DNA from: an uncultured Acidobacteriota bacterium
Lineage (GTDB): Bacteria > Acidobacteriota > Terriglobia > UBA7540
Assembly: GCA_963804995.1 (NCBI GenBank)
Contig: CAWDSK010000003.1
Coordinates: 1,088,001-1,152,000, forward strand
Reading direction: 5' to 3'
DNA length: 64,000 bases
Shown here one piece after another: positions 4,961 through 56,114 of the stretch. The notes under the pieces are model-generated. The model worked only from the letters and a program-made list of their open reading frames with translations, did no database searches and was not told the origin of the DNA. Every line of letters begins with the position of its first letter. Positions within the stretch are counted from its first letter, which is position 1. Position numbers and translations under genes: made by a program.

Positions 4961-7564
4961 CTACTTCCAATTCACGAACAACGGTGAGGACCAGGCAATC
5001 ATGCCGTCTTTTTGCAGGAGCCGCACGTAGTAGTAGTGACGTCCGCCGTCCGTGTTGGCTTCTTGATAATTCAAACTCACCTCTTGCTGGTTTGGCTCCT
5101 CGGAATGGATGACCTTTCCGTCCTTGAGCATATCCACCTTCAAAATGACTGCTGTCCCGCGGGCTTTGACGCGTATCGGTGGAAGCGGACCGGAACTGCT
5201 CACCAAGTCCCCCATGAAGTGCTCGCCCATCCGCACCTCCAGCAGAATATTATCGGTGGCCCCATAGGTGTGCCGCTTGCGGAAAGCGTTGAGGATCCCC
5301 TCGCGCGTCGGATCGTCCGTGTAAACCATCGCATAAGAGATGTGCGTGGAGACGTGATCGGAGCTCGCAATCACCCCCAGGCGGTATCCCTTTTCCCAGG
5401 CGTTCACGACCATTCCTTCCGGTCTGTTCGTATTCATGACATCGGGCCAGGGCGGAATGGAGCGCGCGGCCTCTTGCGCTTCTTGCTCGGTAAGACAGTA
5501 AGGCGCGCCAGCCTGCTCGTAGCATTTCCGCAGGCCCTGGAAAATCTCCACCACCGGCTCCACATCGGGGTGGGGGTCCCGCCAGTCGGTCCCCATGCCC
5601 GTGCCGGTCGTATGCGGAATGGTTATGCCGTGACGTGCGCCCACGTCGTCGTGAAGCAATTGAATGTCATTCTCAACGAGTAGACCACTTTCGTCGGCGG
5701 GCTCATCACCTTCCGAGCTAAGGGGCAGGGTGTAAAATCCCACCCCGCGGCGCAAGAAGAAAGGAACCATATGGGCATCCGCGCGCCGGGGATAGAATAC
5801 GTTCCGGTGCCCAAACGGAAAACTGGCGCTCCGCTCGTAGGCATAGAAACCCACGTAGGTTCCGGGAATATGATACATGTCGGTCATCTTGAGCGAGTAC
5901 CACCACCAATACGGCCAGGCGCCGCCTTGGTGATCCGTGTTGGCGCCAAAGTCCAATGAGCCGGCATCGAGCATATAACGATAGAAATCCTGCAAAGACC
6001 CATCCATGCGTCCTCCCTCGTCCCAGCTCAGTTCGGTGTGACGATGAAAGTCGCCGCGCAACAGGCGATGCTCCTTGCCGTCAATGGTGGCTCGATGCTG
6101 GCGGATGATCTCTAAATCATGAGTTTCCTGCGTCGGTCCGGGTGCAGGTTGTGCCGTCTCTTCTTCCGCGGGCTTTAGCTCCGCCGGTCCCTTCGCAGTG
6201 GGGGCAAGAATCATGCCCGCGTAGACCTGTTGGCGAATGGGGCGATGATAATAAGCGACCGTCCGATTGTCGGTGGGCCAAGTCAGCCAAAGATCGTGGT
6301 TGGGCGCGAGCGCCGCGTTTAGGCGCGTGCTGGATCTTCCTTTGCTGGCGGGCAAGGGATTGGGCTCGGACCAGCGGTTTTGATCCAAATGCGTTACCCG
6401 ATACTCCCAGTAGCCATACTGGTTTTCCCAGGTCTCCCAGAAAGCCTCCTTTTGGGGATAAGCGGGACGGTATTTCGCCAGCTCCCGCACCTTGGCAACC
6501 ACCCATACCGATCCCGCCCCGTCTGAAAAAACATGCGGTTGATAGGTGTCCGATCCTGTGAATGCCCCCGCAAGCTCTGCCTGCGGCTCCAGCCACTTTC
6601 CATTCTCGTAGCAGCGAATCTTTGGTTCGCGGAAACCTCCCAAGGGCACCCCAATCTGCCGTCCAGCTAGAATTTGCCCTTGATCCTTGCCCCAATTCGG
6701 GTGTCCTGACTCCCAAGCAACCCAGACGCGGTCCAAGGTGTCCACGGCCAAGGTAGCCCGCGCGTCGAAACGCGGAGTGGTGGCGACGGGTATTTCTTCG
6801 CCCACTTTCCCACCTCGAACTGGAGTGAGAAACACATCGTAGTGCCCATTCTTATAACTGTCGTAAGCCACCCAGACGGTGCCCTTGCCGTCCATGGCGA
6901 CCGAGGGCTCCCAGTCATTCGCCTCCCGTTGGGTAACGCGAATCTCTTCCGACCATTTCTCGCCCTCCAGGGTGCGTAGGAAAATATTGCTGCTTGCCCT
7001 TGTAGACGGTGGCGAGTGCCGCCGGAAGCCTTGCCAAACTATTGCCGCCCTTCCTTTGCCGTCTGACCAGACGCGCGGATTGATGTCTGGCAAAGGGTCT
7101 GATGTCAATTGTTCGAGCGCACTCCATTTTTGACGGGCCGGATCAAACCGGCGCGCGTAGATATCCCACTGACCATTAACTTGCTGCGACCAAACCACCC
7201 AAACTCGGTTGGAGGAGTCCGCCGCCACATGGGGGAGCCAACTGTCACCACTCGTCCCCGGCACCCACTGGAGGTTTTGCCAGATGTTATCCTTGTAAGC
7301 GCGGATGGCCACGTCATCCCGACTGCCGTCAAAGGTTAGCCAAGCCACCCACACGGTACCGTCGGGCGCTATGGCAATCGAAGGCATATCATCTTGGCGG
7401 TACTCATGACCCACGGGGATGGCATTAACTGTGCCACCTTCAGCAAGCCACTTAATCGGCAGAGCGGGCAGGGCCAGTCCCCCCAGGCCCGCGCCCGCCG
7501 TCATCCCGAAGAACCCTCAACGTGTGAGCTTCTTTTTTCCCACGTTCTCCCCTTGGGTGGTCAT
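4961..7564 (-). CDS. Tat-exported beta-propeller plus PHP-fold metallohydrolase (DUF3604/CehA-like); in-frame TGA at codon 16 inside the twin-arginine motif
   Basis: From ATG 7564: MTTQGENVGKKKLTR*GFFGMTAGAGLGG; GDFHRHT, TDHQ, IPHT and SSDH metal motifs. Confidence 0.75.
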
Positions 7565-7632
7565 GGATAGTTCCCACCCTCTACGCGTATTAGGATGTTT
7601 GCATCCGATACCACTGAGTGGGAATAGCCGTT

Positions 7633-10600
7633 TCAAAAGTAAAGCTTCATCGCCACCTGGCCGACACGCGGGCTACGTGCCGACGTCACTAGTCCAAACA
7701 CCGAGGAAAGAAAGTTGCCACTTGGATTATTGAACTGTGCGTGGTTAAAGGTATTGAAGAACTCTCCCCGGATTTGGAGGCTCTTCGATTCGGTCAGTCG
7801 CAAATTCTTCGTAAGTGCCAAATCCCAGTTATTGAGCCCCGGTCCATGAAAAAAGCGCTGACTCGCGGTACCCAACTGCCCGAATAGTCCAGGGCTGAAC
7901 AGCGAGGTATTGAAGTAATCCGGGCGGGTCCGCGGGTCCCTAAAATTCATCGGGCCAGGCGTAAAGTTAGGCGTGTCGACGTTTTGACCCGCGCCCCCTG
8001 TGTCCATGCCTAACAACGAGTGGTCATCCCGCTCACTAATGAAGACGGGCAAGCCAGTTGTAAAACGGGTGATGCCAGCGATGATCCAACCACGAGTCGC
8101 CCGGTTTTCTCGAAACAACTTGTCACAGGGTAGCTCATAACTGTAACTTGCAACGAAATTATGCGTCATGTCGAAGGATGAAAGACCTTTGGATAAGTGG
8201 CCGTTAACTGGATTGATGGTCAGTCCGCCCGTACCGTAACTTGATGCGTCGTCCAGGGATTTGCTGTAAGTATACGCCGCCAGCCATTCCAGACGGCCGG
8301 AGGTATGGCGGAGCGTAGCCTCCAGGGCGTTATAGTTGGAATTAGCTATGGTCGTAAAAACCACATCGCTGCCAAAAGCAGGACCCAATGGCGATCGAGT
8401 ACTGTTGATAACTCCACCGCCAATGGGATAATAGATCCCGTTTTCTCCAAATTGTGCGCAAGTGGGGGTTCCCGCAACCACCTGGCTTGGTTGACTCACA
8501 CTCAGACACAAAGCTGGATTCCCTACGTTGGCCCCCAAACTGGCAAGAAGGTGATGTGCTTGGGTTCCCACATAACTAATACTCAGCAGCGTTTGAGCCC
8601 CAAACTGGCGTTGGACCGAGAAATTGTAATGTTCGGTCACAGGGAGGACGTTCTTGGTAAAGAAACCCGGAGAATTCGTAATGGGCTCATACTGAGCCCA
8701 GTTGACGTTCGGATCGGGGTTGGAGGCTGAGACATTGAGAGGAGGAAAACTGATCGGGAAGCGCTGTCCTTCGTTATTTCCCGTATTGAGTTCGATGAAA
8801 GGCGTAGCAAAAAGTACTGGAGCGGGATTAACCCAAAAGAATCCATAGGGAGCATCACCTACTACGTTGTTTAGGTCTACGGCATCCCCAAAAGAAGTGT
8901 AAAACATCCCCCAGCCTGCTCGAATACTGGTGCTCCCAGAATCACCAAAGAGCTTGTGGGCTAACCTTCCCTCGCCTCGCGGGGAGTAAGCAAGACCGAC
9001 TCGCGGTGCAAAATTGTCATAGCGCGTTGGGGCGACGGTAGAAGGAATCCCCGGGTCTCCAGGCACAAGCAACCCTTTCGGTGCAGTGGGAAAGACAACC
9101 GACTGTGCACCAGGCACCAATGTCTCAAGTTCGCTGTGCTCTTCCCACCAAGGACTGCTCGCTTCCCACCGGAGTCCGTAGTTAAGCGTTAGGCTGCGTT
9201 TGGCCCGCCAACTGTCCTGGATATACAGCGCATAGTATCGGCTACGCGAATAGACATTCAGCTGCAGACCCTGATAGTATTGTGTCGGGGCACCCAGCAG
9301 GAAATCTGCAAAGTCATCCCCAGTCTGTGTTCCACTGAAAACAAACTGGCCATTGGCCTCCGACCAGCTGGATTCGTTGATCTGCGCGTAATGATAGTCC
9401 CCGCCGAACTTTATCGTATGAGTTCCAGACACTATCGCGTAATTGTTGAGCACTTGATAGGTGTTGTAATTGAAGGTTGTATAATCGGAGACCATCCCGA
9501 ATGCAAAGTTGTTTAAACTGACGGGAGGAACGCCCTCGATCGGAGGGTACAAGGGAACTATTCCTGGAGTGCTCGCCCCTGTCACGAAACCTAGGGAACT
9601 CAGACTTGGGCCAGCTCCGCCAAGAGGTTTGTCGGCCCCGAGAGCGTTACGCATATAGGATAGACGGAGTTCGTTAACTTTAGAACCTCCAAAGGACTTA
9701 GTGTCGCCTAAGTTGAGCAGCTGTGCCCGAGCAGGGCTGATAGCCCCAAAACCAGGCACCGTTGACTGGGGATAGGGGTTAACGAGACTATCATCGTCCA
9801 TAAAGTAGTACCCCGAGAGCATCCCAATGCGAGTATTTCCATCCAGCCGGGCGCCCCCCTTGTCGTCCCTTAACGTTTGATCATAGGCTGAAGTTGAAAA
9901 AAATCCGCTGCCAACGTTGGGCGTCGGAATGTATGGCATCAAATGTGACACGGGAGCCGCCCAGGCAGCTTGAGGTATGGAAGCATTTGGGAAAACACAT
10001 TGCGCGGAAGAAGTACAGCCACTGGAATAGTAAGGTTCACCGGATGTCACTGGGTAGCCCAGGCTTTGGGAGAGGAGACTAGCAAAGTACGGTCCGCTGA
10101 CCGACCCGGTCAGCCCGCTAGCAGCGTCGGCCAAGTTTCCCAGGCGATCCTGAGCCGATGGAACAGGAATAAGTCCGGTGTCCACGCCCACAACCTGGCG
10201 TGTTCCTTGATAGTCCGCAAAAAAGAATACCTTGTCCCGGCGTATGGGCCCTCCAAACGTTCCTCCAAATTGGTTCTGGTGGAGGGTTCCTCGACCAGGC
10301 GAAAAGAAATTGCGCGAGTCCATATCAGAGTTACGCAGAAAGTCGAAAGCGTCGCCGTGAAATCGGTTGGTGCCGGATTTGGTTACGACGTTGATCAATC
10401 CTCCACTATAATTCCCATATTCCGCATCAAAGTTATTGGTCAAAATTCGGAACTCGGCTATTGAGTCGATGTTGGGAATAATTGCCGCCCCGTTAAACTT
10501 CCCCTCCTCAACGGTCCCTCCATTTACCATGAATCCGTTGGCTTCCTCTCGCTGGCCGCTGATTGAAAGATTTCCAGGATTCAAATCTCCTGAAACCTGA

Positions 10601-15230: not shown

Positions 15231-16122
15231 TCACTTATTTGGGGGCGGGTCAGCAGGCTTCGCAACCACGGCGGCCTTCGCCTGGGTGCCAAGAATTTCC
15301 CGGAAACGCGCGCGCAGACTTTCTTCGGTGGAACGAATCAATTGCGCGCCGCGCGACAACATCTGCTCCATGAGGTCCGTGCGCAACCCAATCAGCGCAG
15401 ACGCTGACTCTTCATACTTCCGCTGGAGACCCTGCCGCAGGTGCTGCTCGGCGTCAACCAGGACGGCCTCCACCTGCTGGCGGAACACTTCCATGCTGGC
15501 GCGGGTAAGTTCCTCGGCCTGAGTGCGCAGGATTTCGAGAACCGACTCTACGAGTTTTTGAGAACGGTGCTCGAGGTTCGGCCAGTTTCTTTTCGATGGA
15601 AGGCGCAGCGATGGGAGGCGGCTGCGCGGGCGCAGTGGAAGGAGGCGGGAGAGGCCGGGAAGGCACTGCGGCCGGAGGGGCAGCGGCAGGAGGCGGCACG
15701 CGCGCGGGAGGTTCACCCTGCCCCGGCCGCCCTTGGATCATGTTCTTGGTGACGATCTCCCAATCAGGAGGCGGGTTAAGCACACCCCATAGGTTCTGAG
15801 GTTTTACGAGTTGCATGGCAATCTCGTGTCCGGCAACTCCCGCGGGAGGATCCCAAGCCCGGACACAGACCGCCTTGCACGCGGTGCCTGCCTTGGGGCA
15901 TTCCAGCGTAAGCTGCATGCCGACCAGGACGCGATAGGAGGTCCGGAGCTTGCACCCGTGCAGGTTCACGATGACGGTCTGAGTCAGCTCCCGATACGGC
16001 TGGCCCCCGGCATCCCGCCCTGAAATAAAGACCGGGGTAGTGAAATTAATCCGCGTGCTGCGCCTCCGGTTTGAGAAAGAGGCTTGCGAATCCGCCTTGG
16101 AGGGAAATGGCTTGTCGTTCAT
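15231..16122 (-). CDS. PilZ-like domain protein with Pro-rich linker and coiled-coil C-terminus; one-base frameshift near 15575
   Basis: NRRRSTRI and VNLHGC PilZ motifs; removing one base joins KKLAE to LEHRSQKLVESVLE. Confidence 0.7.
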
Positions 16123-16804: not shown

Positions 16805-16817
16805 TGTCGGGGAATTT

Positions 16818-17706: not shown

Positions 17707-18007
17707 ATGCCTCCATTCAAAAGTCTACGGGCGAGTATCCCCTGGTTCCCCAGCATCGACTACGATGCCTGCCTAAAGGACCTGAAGTGCGTCAATTTCT
17801 GCCCGCACGAAGTCTTTGAATGGGACGTCGATACCGGCCGGCCAGTTGTGGCGCATGCCCTGCGCTGCCTTCCCGGCTGCACAATATGCCTCGAACGGGT
17901 GCGACACCGGCGCCCTTTCCTTGCCGACCAAACAAGAATTCCAGGCTACGTTCGATAAGTTGCGCGGCAAGGAAACGAAACCCTCGCCCCCAAGCCCTCT
18001 GCCTTAA
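17707..18007 (+). CDS. 4Fe-4S dicluster ferredoxin-like protein; one-base frameshift at 17894-17895
   Basis: IDYDACLKDLKCVNFCP; removing one A gives CLPGCTICLDGCDTGALSLP. Confidence 0.8.
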
Positions 18008-18355: not shown

Positions 18356-21300
18356 ATGAAAATCTCACCTTCGCTCTTCACCGCTCTCTTTTCCATCGGC
18401 ATGTTCTTGCTCCCGGCGAATGTGCAGGCCGAAACAGGACCAGTTCGCGCGCGGGTCACTCAACCGGTGGACATGCAGAACCTGGTCACGTTGCGCGGGA
18501 ATACTCATCCACTGGCGCGGACCGAATACGATCAGGGTGTCGCACCCGACAACCTGGCTATGTCTCGGATGCTGCTGGTATTGCAGCGGGGGAAGGATCA
18601 GGAATCCGCTCTGCGACAACTTCTGGATGACCAGCAGATGAAATCCTCTTCACGGTTTCATCAGTGGCTCACGCCCGAACAATTCGGAGAACAATTCGGC
18701 CCCGCCGATGCGGATATTCAGGCCATCATCGATTGGCTGACGACGCAAGGCTTTCTGGTAACGAAGGTTGCAGCAGGCCGCACGGTCATCGAGTTTTCCG
18801 GCACGGCGGGTTTAGTACGGCAAGTTCTGGGTACGGAGATTCACAGATATCGTGTGAACGGCGAGGATCACTGGGCGAACACAAGCGACCCGCAAATCCC
18901 TGCTGCATTGGAGCCGGTGGTAGCGGGCTTCGCCTCGCTCAACAATTTCCCCAGGAAGCCCATGCACCAAAGCCTGGGCACCTTTTCGCGGTCAAAGGCA
19001 ACCGGCAAGGTACAGCCGCTGTTCACCTATGAAGTTTCGGGTGGCTACTACCTTGCCGTTGGCCCCACCGATTTCGCCACGATCTATAACGTGTTACCCC
19101 TCTGGAATGCAGGTACGGACGGCAGCGGACAGACGATCGCGGTGGTGGGCGAGACAAATATCAATATCCAGGACGTGCGAGACTTCCGCAACATGTTCGG
19201 CCTGCCCGCAAAGGATCCGATCATCATCCTGAATGGTCCCGACCCTGGGATCAACGGCGAAGAGGTGGAGGCTGACCTCAACGTCCAGTGGTCCGGAGCG
19301 GTGGCGAAGGGGGCCACCATTGATCTCGTGGTCTCGGAATCGACGGAGGCCTCTGCGGGCATCGACCTCTCAGCCCTCTACATCGTTGACAACAACTTGG
19401 CGCCGGTCATGAGCGAGAGCTACGGTTCTTGCGAGGCCTCCCTGGGGGTAGGTGGCAATCAATTCTACAATACGCTCTGGGAGCAGGCCGCCGCACAGGG
19501 CATTACCGTGCTGTTGGCGGCAGGCGACTCCGGCTCTGCGGGATGTGACAGCGCGATCGCCGGCGAAACCATCGCCAGATACGGCTTGGCCGTAAGCGGA
19601 TTGGCTTCCACGCCCTTCAACGTGGCAGTGGGGGGAACGGACTTCAATGACGCGAACAACCCCACCACTTATTGGTCTCTGACAAATACACTCCCCTCTC
19701 AGTCCTCCGTCAAGTCCTACATTCCCGAGAGCACTTGGAACGATTCCTGCGCGGCCTCCGGGTCGCTCACCGGCTGCAGCCCTCCGCCCAACTCTGACTA
19801 TCTCAGTCAAGGTTTCTATCTGGTCGCCGGCGGCGGTGGGCCCAGCAGTTGTATCAATCCCACTGGCACGTTTCCGAGTGTCACCTGCAGTGGAAGCTAC
19901 CCCAAACCTTCCTGGCAGAGTGGACTGGGAGTGCCCAATGACGGCGCGCGCGACATCCCGGACGTGTCGCTGTTTGCGGGCAACGGCCTGAATTACAGTT
20001 TCTACGTTATTTGCCAAATGGATGCCAACGCCAGTGCCGGAGGCGATTCGTCATCCTGCGATCTGAACTCTCCCTACACGGATTTTCAAGGCGGTTCGGG
20101 AACCTCGGCGTCGACGCAAACCTTCGCCGGTATCATGGCGCTGGTGAACCAGCGCTACGGCCGTCAGGGCAATGCCAATTATGTCCTGTACCCCATGGCG
20201 GCCAAGAGCGGCGCGAGCTGCAATTCCAACCCGGCTAATGTAACGAATTCCAGTTGCGTCTTCTACGACGTGACAGTGGGGAATAACTCGGTAATCTGCC
20301 TTTTGGGTTCGCCAAACTGCAGTAGCGCCCCGACACAATACGGCATTATGATTTCAGGCAATCCTGCTGCGGCTGCCTACCCTGCTACTCCCGGCTATGA
20401 CCTGGCCACCGGATTGGGTTCCGTCAATGTCGCGAATTTGATCAACAACTGGACATCCGTTAGCTTCACGGCAAGCACCACAACCCTTTCGCTTTCCACC
20501 AACCCTGCCACCAATCCGATCTCTTTGACGCACGGGCAGCCGATCAATTTCACCATCCAGGTTATTTCCGGCAGCGGGACGCCCGCAGGAGATGTCTCGC
20601 TCATTGCGCAAACCAGTACCAGTCAGAGCACCGGCATCGGACCGTTTACGCTCGGTGGCGGCAGCGTTTCCGGTGCGACTGTGATGCTTCCCGGCGGAAA
20701 TTACACCGTCACAGCGCATTACGCGGGGAATGGAACCTTCGCGGCAAGCGATTCCTCCCCGGGAATCCAAGTTACGGTAGGCAAGGAAAGCAGCCTGACC
20801 AGCGCGGAGTTGGTGACCTTCAATGCCAACACAGGGGCTCCCTCTTACGGGGTTACAACGACTCCCTATGGGTCACCTTACGCGCTCCGCATGAATGTTA
20901 CGAACAGCAGCGGTCAGCCCTGCGCAAGTCCGGTCACGGGATTGATTGCTTACCCATGCCCAACTGGAGCCTTAACCGTGTCTCCGGCGCCCACCGACGA
21001 GAATCCTCCCCCGGGCACGGTTCCCGGACACTATGCTTTGAACAGCCAAGGCTACGCCGAAGATATACCCATCCAGCTTCTCCCGGGAACGTACCCATTC
21101 GTCGCCAGCTACACGGGCGATAATAGCTACAATTCCAGCATATCCCCCTCGATTCCAATTACGATTACCCAAGCCCCGACTACAATCGGGATCACCGCCC
21201 CGGCATCCGTCGCCGGGCCGAACGAAGTTTCTCTTACTGCAACTATTACCACCCTGAGTAACGGTGTAGGTCCGACTGGGACGGTGCAATTCTTTAACGC

Positions 21301-30008: not shown

Positions 30009-30944
30009 TCACAAACCCCAACCGATATAGGGCTCCGAGGTGGCGTTCAAGATCAGAAGGTCCGGCTCTTTGAGCGTTACCCGGCTGTAGGGCGCCACGG
30101 AGTGGGTCAACCACACGTTTCCACCAATCACGCTGTGGTGGCCGATGCGGGTCTTCCCTCCCAAAATGGTCGCGCTCGGGTAGACCGTGACATGATCCTC
30201 CAGCTCAGGATGACGCTTGTTTCCGTGCCCGCGCCGCAGTTGCCCCTCTTCATCCTTGGAGAGGGGATTGAACGCCCCCAACGTCACGCCATGATAGAGC
30301 GTCACCTTGTTTCCGATGATGGAGGTTTCGCCGATGACCACGCCCGTCCCATGATCGATAAAAAACGACTCGCCGATGGTAGCGCCGGGATGGATGTCAA
30401 TACCCGTGTGGCTGTGGGCCACTTCGGTCATCATGCGGGGAATAAAGGGCACATCGAGAAGGTAAAGCTGGTGGGCCAGGCGCTGCACCGTGATGGCCTC
30501 AATGTAAGGGTAAGCCAGCAGAATTTCCTCATGGCTCGACGCCGCGGGGTCGTTGTGATACGCCGCTTCGATGTCGGTAGCCAGCAGGCGGGCCAGTTCC
30601 GGCAATCGTGCGAAGAGCTTCTGGAGAATCTCGTCCGTGCGACGCTCGAGGTCCGCGGCTGCGGCTTTACCTGTCCGACGGCAGTCAAAACGTACGGCGC
30701 TGCAAATCTGCCCCGCCAACAGAGCTTCAATCTCGGGCAGGAAGGGACCTGAGTCCATTTCCGTATTTCCCGGCTCTTCGAGCAGGAAGTAGACGGGAAA
30801 GAGGATTTCCAAATACCGCCGGCAGATCAGAGTTATGGCATCGCGGCTGGGCAGTTTGAACTCGCTGCGATCGTCCCCGGCAACCTGCGCGTCAAGCGCC
30901 GCCCGGAATTCCTGCGCGAGGCATTGCATTTCGTCTTTGCTCAT
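30009..30944 (-). CDS. cysE: Serine O-acetyltransferase
   Basis: DPAA, GIDIHPGATIGESFFIDHGTGVVIGET, KRHP. Confidence 0.92.
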   Translation of the reverse strand: MSKDEMQCLAQEFRAALDAQVAGDDRSEFKLPSRDAITLICRRYLEILFPVYFLLEEPGNTEMDSGPFLPEIEALLAGQICSAVRFDCRRTGKAAAADLERRTDEILQKLFARLPELARLLATDIEAAYHNDPAASSHEEILLAYPYIEAITVQRLAHQLYLLDVPFIPRMMTEVAHSHTGIDIHPGATIGESFFIDHGTGVVIGETSIIGNKVTLYHGVTLGAFNPLSKDEEGQLRRGHGNKRHPELEDHVTVYPSATILGGKTRIGHHSVIGGNVWLTHSVAPYSRVTLKEPDLLILNATSEPYIGWGL

Positions 30945-31120
30945 GGTTATGGCTCCCTAGGTGGCAGGCGCCAGGCGTCAGGAAAGGCCGAAATTCGAAA
31001 ATCGAAATTCGAAACTCGTAAGCTCCCCTGCTCCCCGACGAGGGGACGCAGTGCGAGGGCGAATTTCGAGTTTCGAATTTCGAGTTTCGACTCCGTCAAC
31101 TGACACCCAGCGCCTACCGC

Positions 31121-32077
31121 TCATCCAATCCCTTCAAAAAGCACAGTAGAAAGATAGCGCTCACCGGAGTCCGGCAAAATGGTGACAATGGTTCTTCCGG
31201 CGAATTCCTTCTGTTTCGCCAGGCGCACCGCCACTGCCGCCGCGGCCCCGCAGGAGATACCACTCAGGATTCCCTCCTCGCGCGCCAGTCGCCGGGCGAA
31301 CTCGATGGCCTCGTCATTGGAGACCTGCTCGATGCGGTCCACCACGGAGAGGTCCAGAACCTTGGGCACGAACCCCGCGCCAATTCCCTGAATCTTGTGC
31401 GGCGCAGGCTTCAGCGGCTGGCCCGCCAGTGTCTGCGTGAGCACCGGACTGTCCGTGGGCTCGACACCAACGGAGAGAATCCGCTTCCCTTTGGTATTCT
31501 TGATGAAGCGCGAAATGCCCGTGATGGTGCCCCCCGTACCCACGCCAGAAACCAGCACATCGATCGCGCCATCGGTATCGTTCCAGATTTCGGGGCCCGT
31601 AGTCTTTTCGTGAATCGCGGGGTTCGCGGGATTCTCAAACTGCTGGGGAAGGAAATAGTGGGCGTGGTCGGAATCAGCAATTTCCTGCGCGCGCTTGATG
31701 GCGCCCGGCATGCCTTCCGGACCCGGCGTCAGAACGAGTTTTGCGCCGAAGGCCGCCAGCACGCGCCGCCGCTCAAGCGACATGGTCTCCGGCATGGTGA
31801 GCGTCAAATTATAGCCACGCGCCGCCGCCACAAAAGCCAGCGCAATGCCCGTGTTGCCACTGGTGGGCTCGATAATCTCCATACCCGGCTTCAACACGCC
31901 ACGCCTCTCTGCATCCCACACCATCGCGGCGCCGATGCGGTCCTTCACGGAGTATGCCGGACCACGTCCTTCAATCTTGGCCAGGATGGTGGCCTGCGTT
32001 CCTGCGGCCAGCCGGGTCAGGCGCACCAGCGGCGTCTTGCCTATACTGGCGGCGTTGTCGTCATATATGTTGCTCAT
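31121..32077 (-). CDS. cysK: Cysteine synthase A
   Basis: [47 protein letters not shown]. Confidence 0.95.
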
Positions 32078-32477
32078 CTAATTTCCTCCAGGTCGAGTGT
32101 GCAATGAACAGTTCTTCATGTCCCAATTGGGTACGTGTGCCGTGGCGAGGAAACCGCCTATCTTCGGAATTATGGAATGTTCCGACGAAGAACCGCGGAC
32201 CCCAAAGACGGGGGACCGCGCTACGCTTGCTACTGCTCGTGGCATGGCTATCCTGGCCATGACGGCTCACGGGCGGGAGAAGCTGTGAAAAAATCCCACC
32301 AAACCTTTCACCGCGGAGACGCGGAGGCGCAGAGGTTTGAAAACAAAGGGTGATTTCTCTGCGTCTCAGCGTCTCAGCGGTGAAAATGGTATTTTTTCAC
32401 AGTTTCGGACGCCCGTGGCACAGCCGGCGGGATGCCCGCACTGTACTTCCTAACCACTCACCACTATCCACTGCTCC

Positions 32478-33651
32478 TCAATACTTCGGCACCGAGGAAT
32501 CAACCTGGTCTGACCACGCCAGGATTCCACCCTTCAAGTTATGGATCTTCCGGAACCCGGACTTCATCAGCAGGTCCACGGCCTTGGCGCTGCGCCCGCC
32601 GGATTTGCAATGCACCACGATTTCATCCGCAGAGTCCAGCTCGTTCATGCGCTTGGGCACTTCTCCCAGCGGAATGAGCTTCGAGCCCGGGATGCGGCAA
32701 ATCTGGTATTCGTGCGGCTCACGCACATCAATCAGGACGAAGGGTTTCTTCTCGTCCATCATCTTCTTCACGTCCACCGGAGTAATTTCCGGAATGCCGG
32801 TTTGCACTGGAGTATGCTCCTCGCCGCGAATGCCGCAGAACTGCTCGTAATCGATCAGCTTGGTGATCGTCCGATGCGTCCCGCAGATCGGGCAATCGGG
32901 GTTCTTACGAAGTTTGAGCTCACGAAACTTCATGCCCAATGCATCAAAGAGCAGCAGGCGTCCGATCAGCGGGTCGCCCTTGCCCAGAATCAGCTTGATG
33001 GTTTCCATGGCCTGGATGCAGCCCACAATGCCGGGCAGCACGCCCAACACGCCACCCTCGGCGCAACTCGGGACCAGTCCGGGCGGAGGCGGCTCCGGAT
33101 ACAGGCAGCGGTAGCAGGGGCCTTCCTTGGCGTAGAAGATGGAGGCCTGGCCTTCAAAGCGGAAAATGCTGCCGTAAACATTCGGCTTGTCCAGCAGCAC
33201 GCAGGCGTCGTTTACCAGATATCGCGTGGGAAAATTATCCGTGCCGTCCGCCACGATATCGAATTCCCGGAAAATATCCAGGGCGTTATCGCTCGAACAG
33301 GCGCGTCTCAAAAGTCTCGATTTCGATGTGCGGATTGATTTCCAGCAGCGTGTCGCGGGCGGAATCGAGCTTGGGCCGGCCCACGTCGCTGGTGCCATGG
33401 ATGACCTGCCGTTGCAGGTTGGTGAAATCCACCACGTCAAAATCCACGATGCCGATCTTGCCCACACCTGCGGCCCCCAGGTATAGCGCCAAGGGCGAGC
33501 CCAGGCCACCGGCGCCGATGCAAAGCACCTTGGCCTGCTTCAGCTTCAGTTGGCCCTCCATGCCCACTTCCGGCATGATCAAGTGGCGGCTGTAGCGCAG
33601 GATTTCGTCTTTGCTTAGCTGTGCGGCTTGAATCATTGTCGCTGTACTCAT
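32478..33651 (-). CDS. moeB: MoeB/MoeZ E1-like adenylyltransferase with rhodanese domain; one-base frameshift at 33296-33297
   Basis: RYSRHLIMPEVG, GAGGLGSP, NLQRQ, CYRC, CPIC, rhodanese HCKSGGRS; removing one base restores ETRLSSDNAL. Confidence 0.9.
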
Positions 33652-33816
33652 TTCCAATCCTTCTCTTGGGAATCTCGTTTCTTATCCCCGGCCAACTGTT
33701 CAAAGTGCAAGAGACGGCATCAACCTATCAGCCGCCTGCCAAAAATCTTTAGGGGGTCTCGGGTGGGATGTGCCCGGGATTCGCCACCCCCGGCCCAGCG
33801 GGGATGGGAGCCCAGG

Positions 33817-34116
33817 CTAGCTACAGATGCAACATAGGTCCGCGCCACCGGCAATGGAAGGCACGATGCTGATCACATCGTTGTTGTTGAGAGGAGTTTG
33901 TTCCTTTTGCAGGAATCGGATGTCTTCGTCGCCCACGTAGATGTTCACAAAGCTGCGCAACTTGCCTTCGTCGTTGTAGAGGTGCTTGCGCAAGTCGCCG
34001 TATAGCGCAGTGATGGCGCCAAGCGCCTCCGCCACGGTCTTCGCTTCCACCTCCAGCGACTCCTTCTTCTCCGCGTATTGCCGCAACGGAGTCGGGATGA
34101 TCACCTTAACTGCCAT
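33817..34116 (-). CDS. MoaD/ThiS/CysO-type ubiquitin-like sulfur carrier with an 8-aa extension after Gly-Gly
   Basis: IPTPLR, FVNIYVGDEDIRFL, IVPSIAGG-ADLCCICS. Confidence 0.9.
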   Translation of the reverse strand: MAVKVIIPTPLRQYAEKKESLEVEAKTVAEALGAITALYGDLRKHLYNDEGKLRSFVNIYVGDEDIRFLQKEQTPLNNNDVISIVPSIAGGADLCCICS

Positions 34117-34133
34117 TCTTTCTCCTCAATGAC

Positions 34134-34607
34134 TCAATCACCCATCATAATTGTTTCTGCCCCAAAGGCCGACCGGTCTTCCGCCAACACCCAACTGGTT
34201 AAATCCTTCGGAGCGCCCTGCTCAACAGCAATTATAACATAAGAATACCACGGCCAGGCATGGTCGCGATCGTAATTCGAGGGCCGCGCCGGATGATCGG
34301 GGTGCGAGTGGTAGTAGCCCAGCACGTCAAGCCCCTGCGCCCGCGCGTCCTTTTCCACGTGTAACTGGTCAAGCGGGTCGATCAGGAAGCGGTTCTCCTC
34401 TGTCTCCTTGCCCAGATCATCTACCGGCAAAAGCTCCTGCGCGCGGTTGGGATCGTGTCGCAGGTTCTTAAGTGGGACAACCTCCGTCACCTGCTTCAAG
34501 TCGCCATCCGCCTTGCCGAGCAACATGCCGCAGCACTCGCTGGGATAGTCGCGCGCGGAATGCTGCCGGATCGATTCCAAATGCCCTTTGTTTAGTCGGA
34601 GAGACAT
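34134..34607 (-). CDS. JAMM/Mov34 (M67) metallopeptidase, Mec-like
   Basis: YPSECCGMLLG, YHSHPDHPARPSNYD. Confidence 0.92.
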   Translation of the reverse strand: MSLRLNKGHLESIRQHSARDYPSECCGMLLGKADGDLKQVTEVVPLKNLRHDPNRAQELLPVDDLGKETEENRFLIDPLDQLHVEKDARAQGLDVLGYYHSHPDHPARPSNYDRDHAWPWYSYVIIAVEQGAPKDLTSWVLAEDRSAFGAETIMMGD

Positions 34608-34758
34608 AGGCCTATCTGATCATCGGGTCATCGGGCCATCGGGTCATTGAAAAACCAGATCAACGGGTTATCGTGTCATCGGATCATTGGTTCATTGAAT
34701 CGCCGATTGTCGATTGCTTGAATCCTTCAATGGCCAGATGACCCGATGGCGCGATCCC

Positions 34759-34985
34759 TTAGCGTCGTGTCTCAGAAGTTCGCTGATTATTAGAGAACCC
34801 CCTCACCCGTCCCGCCCCGGCTGATGAAAACGCCGGTGGCGGTCCACCCTCTCCCCCAAAGGGGCGAGGGCGACAAATTCAGATTAACTCTCCCCTCGCC
34901 CCTTTGGGGGAGAGGGGCCGGGGGGAGGGGGTCGCCTTTGAACCCAGTGAGACTTTGTCAGCGAACTTCCGATTCAGGACATTAG
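34759..34985. mobile_element. Miniature inverted-repeat-bounded element carrying CCCTCACCC/CCCTCTCCC palindromes
   Basis: ...GAAGTTCGCTGA and TCAGCGAACTTC... ends; right end overlaps the cysM stop codon. Confidence 0.55.
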
Positions 34986-35938
34986 CTCCCTTCATCCCAG
35001 AACCGCTCGCTCAAATACTTGTCGCCGCTGTCGGGGAAGATGGTCACCACCACGCCCCTGGTCAACCGGTTCGCCACCGTCAGTGCGGCCACCATGGCGG
35101 CGCCCGCCGAGACTCCCACCAGCAACCCTTCTTCACGAGCCAGCCGCAGCGTCATGCGGTGGGCGTCTTCGGTCGACATTTCCAAGTTCTCATCCGCGAC
35201 GCTCGGATCGTATATGCCGGGCTTGATGGCGGTGGCCATGTGCTTCATGCCTTCCAGACCGTGGAAAGGTGAATCCGGCTGAAACGAAATGCAGCGAATG
35301 CGCGGGTCAAGCTCCTTCAGCCGCCGGGCCGTACCGATGAACGTGCCGCTGGTGCCGAGCCCGGCCACAAAGTGCGTCACCCCGCCTTCCGTCTGCTCGT
35401 ATATTTCGGGAGCGGTGGTCAGGTAATGCGCGCCCCAGTTGGCGGGGTTGTCGTACTGATTGGCGTAAAAATAGAGCTCAGGATTTTCCTTGGCCAGGGC
35501 GCGGACCCGGCGGATCGCCCCATCCGAGCCTTCCATGGGGTCGGTATAAACGATTTCCGCCCCGTAAGCTTTCAGAATGCGTTTGCGCTCCTGGCTCACA
35601 TTCGACGGCATGCAGAGCTTCACGCGGTAGCCCTTGGCGGCGCAAATCATGGCGTAGGCAATGCCCGTGTTGCCGGAGGTTGAGTCGATCAGGACTTTGT
35701 CGTGCGACATCAGCCCGGCGTTTTCGGCCTCGCGGATGATATTGAGCGCCGGACGGTCTTTCACCGAGCCGCCAGGATTCTCCCACTCGGCCTTGGCGTA
35801 GATTTCGACGGAGGGTGAGGCGGGGCGAATGCGCGCGAAGCATACCAATCGCGTGTTCCCTACCAGCGACAGTACATCCGCCGCGCCGCGGGAAGTAGCT
35901 GGATTTTCAGTGGTTGCTGCCCTTGCGTTTTTTGCCAT
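34982..35938 (-). CDS. cysM: Cysteine synthase B family PLP enzyme (CysM-like)
   Basis: NPGGSVKDR, DSTSGNTG, GLGTSGT, GLEGMKHM, PDSGDKYLS. Confidence 0.88.
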   Translation of the reverse strand: MAKNARAATTENPATSRGAADVLSLVGNTRLVCFARIRPASPSVEIYAKAEWENPGGSVKDRPALNIIREAENAGLMSHDKVLIDSTSGNTGIAYAMICAAKGYRVKLCMPSNVSQERKRILKAYGAEIVYTDPMEGSDGAIRRVRALAKENPELYFYANQYDNPANWGAHYLTTAPEIYEQTEGGVTHFVAGLGTSGTFIGTARRLKELDPRIRCISFQPDSPFHGLEGMKHMATAIKPGIYDPSVADENLEMSTEDAHRMTLRLAREEGLLVGVSAGAAMVAALTVANRLTRGVVVTIFPDSGDKYLSERFWDEGS

Positions 35939-36288: not shown

Positions 36289-36694
36289 ATGGCAAATGAA
36301 TCCGCAACCCTGCAGGACGTTCCGCAAGCAATTTGAGCAGGCAGGCTTCATCGTCGCAGACGCCAGTGCGCCACCGGGCTCCATCGAAGTGAAAAAATCG
36401 AATTGCGTCACCTACCTCGAGCAGACAAACGGCCTATGGGTGCGCTCCGGCCCACCTTACTTCATCGTGCACGGCATCAATTGTGAGCTGGAAGACCGTG
36501 GCTATCAAAAGTTCTGGTTTTCAAAGACTGAGGGGAAGCGTTTTCCTATCCGCAAAGTCGATCTCGAAACCCTCCGCCACTTTGACGAAGAAATCCGCTA
36601 TATCCTGGGACAGAAGAGCCTCTACAACGAATCTCTTGGCTCGACGAACGCCCGCACCGTATACGACCGCCTGACCGGCCGCCCCGACCGTTAG
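36289..36694 (+). CDS. Hypothetical protein; either starts at 36296 or has a one-base frameshift near 36320
   Basis: Globular-looking 132-aa ORF; MANESATLQDV joins RKQFEQAGF if one base is removed. Confidence 0.6.
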
Positions 36695-42917: not shown

Positions 42918-43628
42918 ATGCGAAAACTAAAACTTTTGACACTAATGGCTCTGGGATTGATGGTCGCCACTTACGCGCGTGCCCAAGGTCCACCGGATCC
43001 AAATTACGATCCGAACTACAATCCGAACCCCGATCCAGGCTATGTGGATCCGGGCCCAGCCCAAGCATATGGGGTTCCATACGGCGCTCCAGTTTACGTG
43101 GGGCCACCTCCGGTGTGCCCGTATGGCTACTTCCCCTATTACCCCTATGCCTGCGCACCCTACGGCTACTATGGACCCAGCTGGTTTTCGGGCGGAATCT
43201 TTATTGGCGTCGGGCCGTGGGGCCATGGCTATCATGGCTTCTACGGGGGACGCGGCTTTGGCGGCCGGGGCAACTACGGACACGGGCCGGCCTATTCCGC
43301 ACGCGGAGGATCTCGCGGTGGGTACGGTAACGGTTACTCCGGCGGAGGCGCACGTACCTTCGGTGGAAATGGTAATGCCTACAGTGGTAGCGCACGAGGC
43401 TTCGGTGGAAGCGCACGAGGTTTCAGTGGAAGTGCACGTGGCTTCGGTGGAAACGCACGTGGCTTCAGTGGCGGCGGACGCTCCTTTGGTGGAAACGGAC
43501 GCAGCTTAGGTGGTGGCGGACGTGGCTTCGGTGGAGGCGGACATGCCTCAGGTGGAGGCGGACATGCCTTTGGAGGAGGTGGACATGGCGGAGGTAAAGG
43601 CAGTTCACATGGTGGTGGGCGCAGGTAA
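42918..43628 (+). CDS. Exported low-complexity Pro/Tyr-rich then Gly/Arg-rich protein
   Basis: GAGGAGG RBS, signal peptide, PPVCPYGY..YPYACAPYGYYG, tandem SARGFGG repeats. Confidence 0.8.
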   Translation: MRKLKLLTLMALGLMVATYARAQGPPDPNYDPNYNPNPDPGYVDPGPAQAYGVPYGAPVYVGPPPVCPYGYFPYYPYACAPYGYYGPSWFSGGIFIGVGPWGHGYHGFYGGRGFGGRGNYGHGPAYSARGGSRGGYGNGYSGGGARTFGGNGNAYSGSARGFGGSARGFSGSARGFGGNARGFSGGGRSFGGNGRSLGGGGRGFGGGGHASGGGGHAFGGGGHGGGKGSSHGGGRR

Positions 43629-48108: not shown

Positions 48109-48304
48109 GCAGCCGGGGGCTCGAAAGGAAGTCGAGAATGCCTCCGCGCGCGCAGCGAGAAACGTGAGGCGCAGGGCTGGACCCGCCCTGTGGCAGCCGG
48201 CCGCTTTTTGAGGACATCTATTATGAAAAGCCTATTGCTGTTGACGTTCTTGTTCCCCCCGATCCTGTGGGGAGCTTCTATGCCAGCAAGTAGCGCAGCC
48301 TAGG

Positions 48305-48743: not shown

Positions 48744-48952
48744 CTACCTAGCTAAAAGACGATTGCACCAGGTGGCGCAGACTGGGTAGCGCGGCTGAGG
48801 GATTTACCACCCCTTTGCCTCATGTGCTCCCGTAACCACCCCGTCGCCTTCGGCGCCACCCCTCCCTTCGACAGGCTCAGGGCAGGCTCTGAATCAGGCG
48901 GGGAGCCTTTGAAAACTCCCCTCCTCAGATGAGGAGGGGTGGCGCGCTGAGC

Positions 48953-49036
48953 GCCGATAGCGTGTTCTTTCCAAATTGATCATCGGGGCCGAGCCCCGAT
49001 AGCGTGTTCTTTCCAAATTGATCATCGGGGCCGAGC
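48953..49036. repeat. 42-bp tandem duplication
   Basis: CCGATAGCGTGTTCTTTCCAAATTGATCATCGGGGCCGAGC twice. Confidence 0.85.
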
Positions 49037-49389
49037 GCCGGGGTGGTGCTGATCAGCGCGGCGGGGCCGCAACCGGAACGTGCCACGGGCATCCTGCCGG
49101 CTCCGTAGGTGGATGAGGGTCTGCTCATCGGGTGGTGAAGTAACCCCTCACCCGTCCCGCCCCGGCTGATGAAAACGCCGGTTGCGGTCCACCCTCTCCC
49201 CTCGGAGAGGGCTATGATTTCAATTCCTATCCCTCGAGGTTGAGCAAGCAAGTAGCGCAGCGGGCCGGCTGGCGCAGGGCGAGCCCAGCCCTGCGATTCA
49301 CGTGGCTGAACATGCCCGGCGGAAGTGCCGTTGACGGCGCTTCCCCGCGGTGTATAGTGGTGGTCCACAATTCCTGAGGGGCGAGGATT

Positions 49390-51741: not shown

Positions 51742-52489
51742 AGCCGTAAACACGTTTGGCGGGTGGCAGACTTCGGCTCGCTCTGCGCCAGCCTGCGGGG
51801 TGTTAATAGTAAAGTGGATGTTTATCAGATTAAGAGCCGCAGACTCTGAAAGGCACAGACTCTGCAATGCAATACCGTAAATCCTTGTTGTTTTAGCAAA
51901 CATTTTGGGGCGAGAGTTGAAAGTGGCGACTTCCATCCAAGGGACCCCTCATCCGCTTCGTACCTCAGCACCTTCTCCCCTGGGAGAAGGTTGGAAATCA
52001 GACCGCCCTCTCCGAGGGGAGAGGGTGGACCGCCGCCGGCGTTTTCATCAGCCGGGGCGGGACGGGTGAGGGGTTACTTCACCACCCGATAAGCGGACCC
52101 GCACCCAACTACGGAACTAGCAGCGCCGTTTCCAGTTTGGTTGCGCTCCTCCGCTCTGCTACCCGCTTCCTTAGATTCACGCTTCCGAATCGGAGGGCAC
52201 AACCGGATTTGCGGTTTCCCCCTACTGAAGAACCGCGGACCCCAACGGCGGGGGTCCGCGCTACCCGAACAGATTCACGGTTTCCGATACGTGGGCTAAG
52301 TGAGAAGGCTGGCGGCTGCCGGGGAGAATCATTGGGAATTGCCATCCAGGCCCGTAAGAGTTTAAGATGGCATTCCCAATCCAGAGGGAAACATGTCAAC
52401 CCAATACGTTCGATGCGGTATGGTTATGGCCAGCCGGCACGGCTGCTAACCCCAATTTCTAGCCGGCTTAGTTGCTCCAAGGAGGGCAA

Positions 52490-53297
52490 ATGCAAGGTCC
52501 AAAATTGAAGCAGTGCTATGAGCATTACACCTGGCCCGAAATGAAAGAGGTCATCGCCCGCCAGCCGGTGTGCATTCTGCCCATCGGTTCGGTGGAGGAC
52601 CACGGCAAGCACCTGCCGCTCAACGTCGATAATTACCTGATCGGCACGATCTGCGACGAGGTGGCCCGGCGGATTCCGGATGAGGTGCTTCTGCTGCCAC
52701 CCATCCCCTACGGCTTCGAGGACCATCACATGAGCTTCCCCGGGACGATCACCATTCGGCCTGAGACCCTGGAAGCCTTTGTGCTGGATATTACTTTGAG
52801 CCTCGCCCATCACGGCTTCCGCAAAATTCTGCTGGCCGACGGCCACGGCAGTAATATGCCCATCCTCAACCTCGCCGCGCGCAAGACGATTATTCAGTCT
52901 GACGCGCTCTGCGCCTGCTTCATCTGGCCCTCGCTTATCACCGGCTTGATCAAGAGCACGCGTGAGAGTCCCTTCCCGGGCGGCATGTCGCATGCCTGCG
53001 AACTCGAAGACCTCGGTATACCTTTATCTGAATGAGTCAGCCGTGCAAATGGACAAGGCTGAAAAGGAAATCGGCTTTCACCCGTCAAAATATTATTGGC
53101 ACGATCTGGGCGGCGGGCCTCCCGTACGGATGGTCGAATGGTGGACACGGATATCGAACAGCGGCGTTGTGGGTGACCCCACGCTCGCTACCCGCGAGAA
53201 GGGCAAGCTCTGGTTCGAGGCCACGGTCACCAATCTCATCGAATTCATTCGGGAGTTCCGCGGCTTTGAGGTTCGCCCCAAGGTGGATCACCACTGA
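52490..53297 (+). CDS. Creatininase family amidohydrolase; one-base frameshift at 53007-53008
   Basis: PIGSVEDHGKHLP, HHMSFPGT, DGHGSN; removing one A restores HACELETS; GVVGDP. Confidence 0.88.
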
Positions 53298-53322
53298 TGA
53301 CCCGGGTCGGCCTGAAGCTCTG

Positions 53323-54612
53323 CTAGCTGTGCCGCGGCTCTAGAATCCGCTTCGACACGAAGGCGTTTGCGGCGTCATTATTTGTGAATCTCTCCTTCGC
53401 GGGGTCCCACGTAAGTTTTCCCCCGACCTGAATGGCGATGTGCCCCATAAGACAGATTGAGGTGGTGCGATGTCCGACCTCGGCATTTTCCATGGGCTGA
53501 CCGCGCGTCATGACCGCATCGATGAAATCTCGCTTGTCGGACTTAAAGGGGAAATGGATTTCGTCAGGGCGAAGCTTAAGATCGATCAGCGACGCGGGCT
53601 CAGCCTGGAGGGGCTTCATGTACTCGGCATAGACCCAACCCTCCGAACCCTCAAAACGGACGGAACCCGTGTCGTCTTGCGTTTTGAAAAAGAGTTGCAC
53701 CCCGTTGGCATAACGGTAGGAGGCCTCGAAGCTCGTTGCCACGTTCCAGAAGCTGTCCCGCGGCGGGTAAACGCCCTGGGCCTCAACCTCCACCGGCCCT
53801 GTACGCTCGGTGTTATTACCCCATTGCGCGATGTCAATAAGATGATATCCCCAGTTGCAGATCATCCCGTCGTCATAATACAGGTGGCGCATCCAGCCGC
53901 CGCGCTCGTAGGAGTGAGGCGTGTGGACGCGCTTGAGGGTATAGGGGGCGCGCGGCGCAGGGCCCTGCCAGCGCTCATAGTTGAGCCCCTCCGGCACCGG
54001 CATGTCAGGTTGAGGCGGGCAACCTACATCGGTACCCGGCACGGTGGCGCGAATGGTGTGCAGCTTGCCGATACGCCCGTTGCGCACCAGCTCGACGGCG
54101 CGGTAGAAATTTTCCAGCGAGCGGAACTCGCTGTCGGTCCGGAAAACCATCTCGTGTTTCTTCACCAGGTTGCTCAACTCCCGGCCTTCGGCAATCGAGC
54201 GATTGAGCGGCTTTTCGCAGGAGACATCCTTGCCCGCCTTGATCGCTTCCATCGATATGGGCACGTGCCAGTGGTCCGGCGTGCCGACGAAAACCGCATC
54301 AATGCCCTTGTCGGCCAGCAGGTCATGGAAGTCATGGTAGGTGGCGCATCCCTTGTAGGCGCCACTCGTCGTCTGCTGCGCATAAGCGTCTTCCACCTGC
54401 TTCTTCGCGTTCGCAAGGCGCCAGGCATCGACATCACATACCCCCACGATTTGCACATCCGGCATGGCGAGGAATTGTTTCAGATTCACTTGCACGGTCT
54501 GCCGCCCGACGCCGATCACACCGACCGTGACGCGGCCGCTGGGAACTGCCTTGCCCATCAGCAAAGTGGCGGTGCTGGTTCCTATAATGAATGTCCTGCG
54601 TGTCATAATCAT
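53323..54612 (-). CDS. Tat-signal Gfo/Idh/MocA oxidoreductase
   Basis: MTRRTFI, GVIGVG, GTPDHWH, CEKP. Confidence 0.9.
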   Translation of the reverse strand: MIMTRRTFIIGTSTATLLMGKAVPSGRVTVGVIGVGRQTVQVNLKQFLAMPDVQIVGVCDVDAWRLANAKKQVEDAYAQQTTSGAYKGCATYHDFHDLLADKGIDAVFVGTPDHWHVPISMEAIKAGKDVSCEKPLNRSIAEGRELSNLVKKHEMVFRTDSEFRSLENFYRAVELVRNGRIGKLHTIRATVPGTDVGCPPQPDMPVPEGLNYERWQGPAPRAPYTLKRVHTPHSYERGGWMRHLYYDDGMICNWGYHLIDIAQWGNNTERTGPVEVEAQGVYPPRDSFWNVATSFEASYRYANGVQLFFKTQDDTGSVRFEGSEGWVYAEYMKPLQAEPASLIDLKLRPDEIHFPFKSDKRDFIDAVMTRGQPMENAEVGHRTTSICLMGHIAIQVGGKLTWDPAKERFTNNDAANAFVSKRILEPRHS

Positions 54613-54878
54613 GGGGTCCCTCCGAAATATGTCAAACTGCTCTTAACGCTTCCCTTCTCCAGCCATCCTTCCGGCCCAAATCTTGGTGCACTTGCCCCTC
54701 CGTGTCAATGCCCAATGATTTTCTTTCGCGGCAGGTGGGGTGGCACACTCGACTTTGAGTTCTGCGCTTTGCGTTTTGCGCTTTGACTTTCTTTTCCGAT
54801 TTCACCGCTCTATGCCTGCTTGAGCCGCACCGACTTCCCGGCATGGTATACTGCGCCCAAGCAAGGAGGGCTACAACC

Positions 54879-56114
54879 ATGCATCGTTGAGGATTCCTCT
54901 CCGCGGCGCTCGGCGCCGCAGCGGGCGCTGCGTTTGCACCTATCCGGGCCACGGCTCAAGAGGCGGCATCGGCCGCGAAGCCGTTGAACCTGAAGATCAC
55001 CGGCCTCAAGACTTTTGTGGTGAATATTGGTGACCAGAACTGGGTGTTCTGCAAGGTATACACCAATCAGGGACTGGTGGGACTGGGTGAAGGGTCGGTC
55101 ACCGGCAAGGAAGCGACGGTTGCGTCGGCCATCATGGAGCACGAACGATTCCTGGTGGGGAGAGATCCCACCAACATCGAACTGCTTTGGCAAGGCATGT
55201 TCCGTTACCCGCGCTGGCGTGGCGGTCCGGTTTTGAACTCGGCGATCAGCGCGGTCGAAATCGCCCTGTGGGACATCCTGGGGCAGGCGCTGGGGGTTCC
55301 GATCTACAAGCTGTTGGGAGGGGCGGCGCGCGAGCGCATCCGGATGTACCTCGATGTGGAGGCGACTCCAGAGGAGTTCCTGCGCGCCAAGGCCCTGGGT
55401 TACACAGCATGCAAAACGGGTGTCCTGAGGGATAAACACCTGGTCGTCGAGCCCACCCGGATGGTTCGCGAGGGCGTGCGCAGGCTCCAGGAGATTCGCA
55501 AAGCGGTGGGGGATGATTTCGACATCGCGGAGGACGCCCATGGGCGCTTGACGACGACCATGGCCATCGATTTCTGCACGCGCGTTGAGGAGCTCAATTT
55601 GTTATGGGTTGAGGAGCCCACCCAAATCGAGGATTTGGATGAGCTCGCCTTGCTGCGTTCGAAGACCAAGACGCATCTCGCCACCGGCGAGCGGTCCTTC
55701 ACCAAGTATGGCTTCGCGGAATTCTGCTCGCGCCACCTGGTGGACTACATTCAACCGGACGTTTGCCACGCGGGCGGCATTTTGGAACTGAAGAAAATCG
55801 GCGTGCTGGCGGAAACCTACCGGGTCAGCATGGCGCCGCACAATCCGCAAAGCCACGTCAGCACCATGGCCTCGCTGCACGTGGATGCCACCACGCCCGC
55901 CGCGGTGATTCAGGAGTCAACCCGGCCGAGAAGCCCGTGGATGGAGGACCTGGTCAACGGCGAGGGACCTGTGATTAAGAATGGTTACGCGGAACTGCCT
56001 GCACGCCCGGGCCTGGGAGTAACATTGAATGAAAAGGTCGCCGCTGAGCACCCCTACAAGCCCACTAACCGCCCGGAATTTGTCTTCGAGGACGGCTCGG
56101 TAGCGGATCAGTAA
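54879..56114 (+). CDS. Tat-signal mandelate racemase/MLE family dehydratase; in-frame TGA at codon 4 inside the twin-arginine motif
   Basis: AGGAGG RBS; MHR*GFLSAALGAAAGAAF continues in frame into NLKITGLK...DAHGR, WVEEP, ATGER, APHNP. Confidence 0.85.

Follow-up and report, generated by a model that had tools for sequence, protein, structure and literature searches.

Introduction

Errors that base modification induces in nanopore sequence are a described class. For Kit 14/R10.4.1 data, the excerpted text of Lohde et al. (2024, PMC11610573) gives RA/TY as the minimal shared error motif, lists CRAC/GTYG and RACG/CGTY among the patterns of particular species, and reports that PCR largely removes the errors. 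Such errors are strand-specific (Liu et al. 2024, PMC11610603, excerpt), and the class most raised at methylation motifs in R10 reads is G>A (2026 preprint, 10.64898/2026.01.14.699587, excerpt). Among methylases with related sites, M.AatII yields G(m6A)CGTC, where m6A is N6-methyladenine (PMC3287169, excerpt), members of the MmeI family carry the methyl group to the penultimate A of one strand (PMC2731913, excerpt), and the Halorubrum BOL3-1 CTCGAG methylase has the off-target words GTCGAG/CTCGAC and TTCGAG/CTCGAA (PMC8112702). Here we describe gene-breaking lesions in a 64,000-nucleotide stretch (the window, G000:C3:1088001-1152000) of the genome of an uncultured acidobacterium (G000; 7.55 Mb, 9 contigs, 92% complete), which an earlier note had read as the footprint of a host DNA modification on the single motif CTCGA(C/G). 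The lesions fall on at least three six-base words and are most likely consensus errors of native-DNA nanopore sequencing beside likely methylated adenines, the affected genes being likely intact.

The phenomenon is a known, published artefact class, and the motifs are new. As in the nanopore studies PMC11610573 and PMC11610603, the errors are G/A and C/T exchanges at short, strain-specific motifs, and the contexts CRAC/GTYG and RACG/CGTY match CTCGAC, GACGAC and GACGTC. Those studies used isolate reads, whereas the signal described here comes from the deposited consensus alone; in addition, single-base (+1) insertions are frequent here, and the full six-base words do not stand in the excerpted part of their table. 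The word GACGTC is that of M.AatII (PMC3287169, excerpt), and the error lies just 5' of the adenine methylated by that enzyme, but no G000 gene was tied to AatII by homology. The Halorubrum enzyme has the same word set as found here; it makes 5-methylcytosine (5mC) with CTCGAG as its main site, whereas in G000 CTCGAC is the strongest word and no C5 methylase was found. A literature search for these words as methylation motifs and for acidobacterial methylomes, with REBASE and supplements outside its scope, returned the papers cited here and unrelated ones, and no report of the words as m6A sites beyond M.AatII. The biology would be ordinary, namely restriction-modification methylation viewed through a known sequencing artefact; what is added here are three motifs, a test by strand skew for which reads are unnecessary, and one prediction joining a motif to an enzyme.

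Results and Discussion

Affected motifs

Coding sequences were compared with those of the closest congener tested, G015 (DNA ~78% identical; 2.39 Mb of roughly 5.5 Mb compared), in 1055 alignments to its open reading frames (ORFs) totalling 1.07 Mb. Non-synonymous single changes were counted from G015 to G000 and in reverse, with 2028 contexts tested and the region C8:42-50 kb excluded. At least three motifs are affected: CTCGAC (with CTCGAG more weakly so), GACGTC and GACGAC. The change CTCGAC>CTCAAC occurs 47 times against once in reverse, GACGAC>GACAAC 21:1 and GACGTC>AACGTC 16:1, and CTCGAG gives 9:2; among the three motifs, CTCGAC>CTCAAC alone survives Bonferroni correction over the 2028 tests. 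The enrichment of lesions on CTCGA(C/G) is genome-wide, but the single-motif account of the earlier note missed GACGTC and GACGAC. Its proposal of a TCGA core also fails, because ATCGAC (4:8), GTCGAC (2:3) and TTCGAC (7:7) are flat; NTCGAN words are thus not all affected, which speaks against a TaqI-like or EsaBC2I-like methylation of the TCGA core. CTCGAC is affected whichever of the four bases flanks it on either side. When 1032 contexts were ranked, an A followed the changed G in four of the top five, in agreement with the published RA/TY class, and a CTnGA motif of type-ISP-like form was rejected in this ranking. At the mirror position of CTCGAC on the other strand there are no non-synonymous changes (0/98), and synonymous changes are raised (78:16).

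Single extra bases follow the same words. Of 68 clean insertions in G000 relative to G015 ORFs, 33 lie on CTCGA/TCGAG and six carry the GACGTC product, one of these being shared with CTCGA/TCGAG. The remaining 30 are on neither motif, and 12 of them cluster in one poor stretch of C8. Deletions had no motif link in the same comparison, with CTCGA/TCGAG at 3 of 24.

In the poor stretch, G000:C8:43000-48300, the twelve +1 insertions are spread over four neighbouring genes and have no motif in common; the stretch is likely low-coverage consensus.

Frameshifts and word ratios across the assembly

A reference-free search with a codon-phase model over all nine G000 contigs gave 364 +1 events, or 345 once repeats were removed. 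With a background of 0.0019, a +1 shift coincides with 68 of the 1190 coding copies of CTCGAAC, with 37 of the 911 copies of the GACGTC insertion product and with 28 of the 1556 copies of CTCGAAG. Six words account for 149 of the 345 events, and they do so on all nine contigs, at 9-44 per Mb. The model recovered 38 of the 68 insertions found by alignment, which suggests a few hundred +1 events in all. Poly-A words that it also returned came from repeated elements and were gone after de-replication. A corresponding intrinsic test for premature stops was weak: the GTTGAG context ranked first, yet accounted for only 6 of 136 read-through-like stops.

Product/parent word ratios were computed for 29 genomes of the genus, G000 and 28 congeners. 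For CTCGAC the ratio is 1.03 in G000 against a median of 0.57 (range 0.45-0.95) in the congeners, and for GACGTC 3.39 against 1.83 (1.59-2.56). From these raised ratios, about 1,400 (23%) and 600 (35%) sites would be converted, as rough estimates; the effect is accordingly partial, as had been claimed from the intact sites in the window.

In three of the congeners (G004, G010 and G039) CTCGAC is scarce without excess product or strand skew, which looks like true avoidance, perhaps linked to a cognate restriction-modification system in these lineages.

Lesions in the window

The ten places cited in the earlier note read as it described, and relatives are intact at all seven of its main sites. 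The lesions are as follows.

7516..7521, plus strand: CTCAAC, likely a miscalled CTCGAC, giving TGA in the twin-Arg signal of a minus-strand gene (4961-~7540)
5288..5293, minus strand: possible Asp-to-Asn miscall, ambiguous from the residues of homologues
15570..15576, plus strand: a base gained next to CTCGAG, by which a minus-strand gene of no Pfam family is split
17890..17896, plus strand: CTCGAAC, with an A gained, in the gene for a 4Fe-4S ferredoxin; G015 orthologue one base shorter and intact
19277..19285, plus strand: EADLD motif of an S53 peptidase, with Asn in place of Asp; parent site both CTCGAC and GACGTC
33292..33298, plus strand: CTCGAAC, with a base gained, in the minus-strand gene moeB; G015 orthologue one base shorter and intact
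36316..36322, plus strand: GACGTTC, with a base gained at GACGTC, the second motif; G015 orthologue one base shorter
52619..52627, plus strand: Asn for Asp in a creatininase; parent site both CTCGAC and GACGTC; Asp in 6 of 7 homologues
53003..53009, plus strand: CTCGAAG, with an A gained at CTCGAG, in creatininase
54886..54891, plus strand: GTTGAG, likely a miscalled GTCGAG, by which a gene of the mandelate racemase family has TGA in its twin-Arg signal

The twin-Arg pair broken at 7517-7519 is intact in the three closest homologues (P0242-P0244), and congener G034 has two Arg codons at the site matching 54888. At 19280, 15 of 15 distinct aligned relatives have an Asp codon; the peptidase gene has a Pro-kuma_activ Pfam match, and we take this Asp of EADLD to be the catalytic residue. 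The reading frame across 53003 is unbroken in 7 of 7 homologous loci. The G015 orthologue of the gene split at 15570 has one base fewer and an intact ORF of 314 amino acids; the lesion there is an extra G beside CTCGAG rather than a doubled A, and the PilZ label once given to this gene was not confirmed by Pfam. Of two candidates that had been put forward more weakly, the one at 52620 is supported, whereas that at 5289 is ambiguous, its 119 homologues having Asp in 86, Asn in 24, Glu in 8 and Ala in one. The frameshift at 36320, previously taken to be off-motif, is real and lies on GACGTC, and the sites at 19280 and 52620 lie on two motifs at once.

Sequencing error or mutation

The breaks sit on few words assembly-wide, even in single-copy essential genes, and for this reason they are most likely sequencing errors. 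G000 has one orthologous copy each of leuS (C3:20352) and dnaE (C7:35966), and both are frameshifted at such words; secD, purL, purN, fabF, sucC and selB are split likewise. The earlier view that the affected genes are probably intact is supported. The alternative that these are real mutations at a hotspot, by 5mC deamination or a mutator, with truly broken genes, has the C>T/G>A direction in its favour, as well as a general C>T excess in G000 over G015, and some CTCGAC exits are raised at synonymous sites only (78 vs 16), which looks like real avoidance. We nevertheless regard it as very improbable. The single-copy genes are split; deamination yields no +1 insertions, and such insertions are present; and no match to the C5 methylase family PF00145 was found in G000, at 92% completeness, so that the 5mC hotspot once suggested for the C-to-T changes is not supported. 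The non-synonymous rate relative to G015 is 43/197 at CTCGAC against 1348/34685 at all CpG sites, from which it follows that changes at the motif are hardly filtered by selection.

Short records of run X1, which may be the source sample, were compared with the window. Five align without mismatch and a single one of these is gapped: its 151 letters cover 152 window bases (17769-17920), spanning 17890, with 0 mismatches and 1 gap, so that it is one base shorter across this lesion, a further point against mutation. The comparison took in four of the lesions; no identical short records for the other three, 15570, 19280 and 33292, were among the records listed for run X1, and no RNA data set was listed as carrying the sequence.

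The affected words are also skewed by the strand that was deposited, which speaks against a mutational origin. When all 2016 six-mer pairs were ranked by skew against the deposited contig strand, five of the six largest skews were parents and products of the motifs. The direction is constant, with more G>A where the G is on the deposited plus strand, and 7-8 of the 9 contigs agree. The motif products keep the same sign whether a block is G-rich, flat or C-rich, whereas purine-tract words flip. A consensus step that resolves near-even read splits may produce such a skew.

An error of the basecaller or polisher that depends on the k-mer and not on any modification is quite improbable in our judgement. 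An A>G/G>A bias does persist in amplified DNA (10.64898/2026.01.14.699587, excerpt), and the error rates found here vary with the flanking base. Against this, eight other genomes of the genus with fewer than 100 contigs are normal, with ratios of 0.47-0.61 (their platforms are unstated), and the affected words are six-mers resembling restriction-modification sites, one of which matches a resident enzyme. The feature is real in the deposited file and most likely absent from the cell.

Nature of the probable mark

In nearly every event the G before an A is read as A, or that A is doubled; a few CTCGAG events double a flanking base instead, as at 15570. In the mechanism that we propose, methylases would mark G(m6A)CGTC, GACG(m6A)C and CTCG(m6A)C, the last with a weaker counterpart in CTCG(m6A)G. 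In reads of the marked strand the G 5' of the methylated A would be called A, or the A doubled, reads of the other strand would be correct, and the consensus would be wrong at between about one quarter and one third of the sites. The proposal that a host DNA modification causes motif-specific consensus errors is supported, with m6A as the better-supported mark. The earlier note had placed the responsible enzymes elsewhere in the genome, and N6/N4 methylases are indeed many in G000, including beta-class, Dam-like, type I, type III and type IIG enzymes.

The same artefact could arise from N4-methylcytosine (m4C) on the opposite strand, at the C of GTC or CTC, read as T or as a doubled T. Seven or more of the G000 methylases are of the beta class, N4 or N6, one with a TSPPY motif; T(m4C)GA enzymes such as M.EsaBC2I exist (PMC3287169, excerpt), and as described the lesions are strand-symmetric. 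We consider this reading unlikely: the flat NTCGAC words exclude a TCGA-wide mark, the GACGAC motif matches the predicted site of an m6A enzyme with the error exactly 5' of its target A, and the methylation-linked errors of R10 reads are dominated by G>A (10.64898/2026.01.14.699587, excerpt).

Since the errors are nearly all at a G-A step, a backbone or guanine modification may also be considered, either Dnd phosphorothioate at GpA or 7-deazaguanine, and G000 has three dndC-like fragments. None of these passes the DndC cut-off, all being split or truncated, no DndD was found over its cut-off and no DpdA was found in G000; absence of Dnd and Dpd is not proven by this, because the genome is 92% complete, and we give such a mark a very small chance.

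An MmeI-family enzyme and other modification genes

Methylation of adenine finds a candidate enzyme in a type IIL gene of the MmeI family at G000:C6:665.6-668.4 kb. It lies in two frames, which match MmeI (5HR4) with E values of 1e-241 and 3e-49, and all five Pfam models (N, helical, methylase, TRD and C domains) are matched across them. The break, at about 666.2 kb, lies at the insertion product of the CTCGAC motif, with one extra base, and the homologue in G033 is one ORF across it; the enzyme was found in 2 of the 29 genus genomes. The full domain set and close match are shared with the described family (PMC2731913, PMC2731914, PMC4833311, excerpts; 5HR4).

Recognition residues were counted by hand from alignments in MmeI numbering and translated with the rules excerpted from PMC4833311 and PMC2731914. 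S723 and H737 specify G at position 1; I642 and K645 at position 2 go with A in three named enzymes and C in one; E751 and S773 specify C, L774 and R810 G, and E806 and R808 C. The code reads G-[A/C]-C-G-A-C, and the GACGAC motif had been found before the enzyme was examined. Of the 16 nnCGAC words, a single one is stronger than GACGAC (21:1), and GCCGAC (13:1) comes next after it. The enzyme is accordingly predicted, from its residues, to write GACG(m6A)C on one strand. This site is not among the family sites in the excerpt of Table 1 of PMC2731913, where EsaSSI, DrdIV and ApyPI are nearest; REBASE was outside the comparison.

Slightly more probable than the contrary, in our estimate, is that part of the methylome of this uncultured acidobacterium is readable from the consensus and tied to a writer by the type IIL code, with the MmeI-family enzyme acting at GACG(m6A)C and a further writer at CTCG(m6A)C. 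If so, motif asymmetry, frameshift motifs and strand skew could pair motifs with enzymes in nanopore-only genomes without raw signal, and the same three tests would flag some 2,000 false changes in such a genome. The match of motif to enzyme is one cheap, testable prediction.

Several points weigh against this account and against the artefact reading on which it builds. The case is built on deposited sequence, and the nanopore platform is inferred from the 9 contigs of up to 2.17 Mb and from the error spectrum. The read-level check covers one of seven sites at depth 2, and its gap may lie anywhere within 17769-17920. By itself GACGAC (21:1, p 7.5e-5) fails the Bonferroni threshold and rests also on strand skew, and on the other strand GACGAC>GATGAC is raised to some degree as well, with 15 non-synonymous changes against 4, mostly Val-Ile. 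In the few G-rich blocks (14 of 76) the skew is weak, and the GACGAC parent is flat there (z +0.6). In double-stranded sequence, m6A looks the same as m4C on the opposite strand. As for enzymes, the position-2 code is ambiguous between A and C in its source paper (PMC4833311 and PMC2731914 in excerpt), and the main motif, CTCGAC, is tied to none.

Other candidate writers gave no assignment. The beta methylase L092 (C2:373.9 kb) was not established as the writer of GACGTC, the names of its homologues being generic. It has close orthologues in six congeners, including G005 and G017; that of G005 is 91% identical, and this genome has the second-highest AACGTC/GACGTC ratio (2.56) and no strand skew, while in G017 the ratio is normal. 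For L102, L086 and L207-L210, tried as writers of CTCGAC or CTCGAG, no named relative was found. A second methylase, encoded next to a nuclease-like ORF at C4:10.6-12.2 kb, has its break at the GACGTC product.

A fusion of a beta-class methylase with an Mrr-type nuclease domain is repeated in G000 (L087, L088 and L093), with two whole copies and one broken. The three dndC-like remnants (L203, L204 and L205), two of them near-identical, are without dndD, and the neighbours of L203-L205 include DpnII-like methylases, an HNH nuclease and a Pycsar-like cyclase.

Consequences for the deposited genome

Taking the two motifs with ratio estimates together with the frameshift model, G000 likely holds about 1,400 + 600 false substitutions and a few hundred false frameshifts, all as rough estimates. 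Claims of pseudogenes, lost catalytic residues or read-through made from G000 are unsafe at these words, and the genome's own methylase genes look broken by the artefact.

Other observations

A further +1 event from the frameshift model, at window position 43296, lies off the motifs. The moeB gene belongs to a sulfur-relay cluster at 30009-35938 of the window, with two cysteine-synthase-family genes and a JAB-domain gene. Two other palindromes differ in abundance from expectation or between genomes. CTGCAG counts vary several-fold among congeners (265 in G006, 2241 in G031), and the word is depleted in G000 relative to G015 (0.56 vs 0.77). CAGCTG is nearly missing in both G000 and G015 (observed/expected 0.11 and 0.16), a strong avoidance that is shared between them and is not an artefact.

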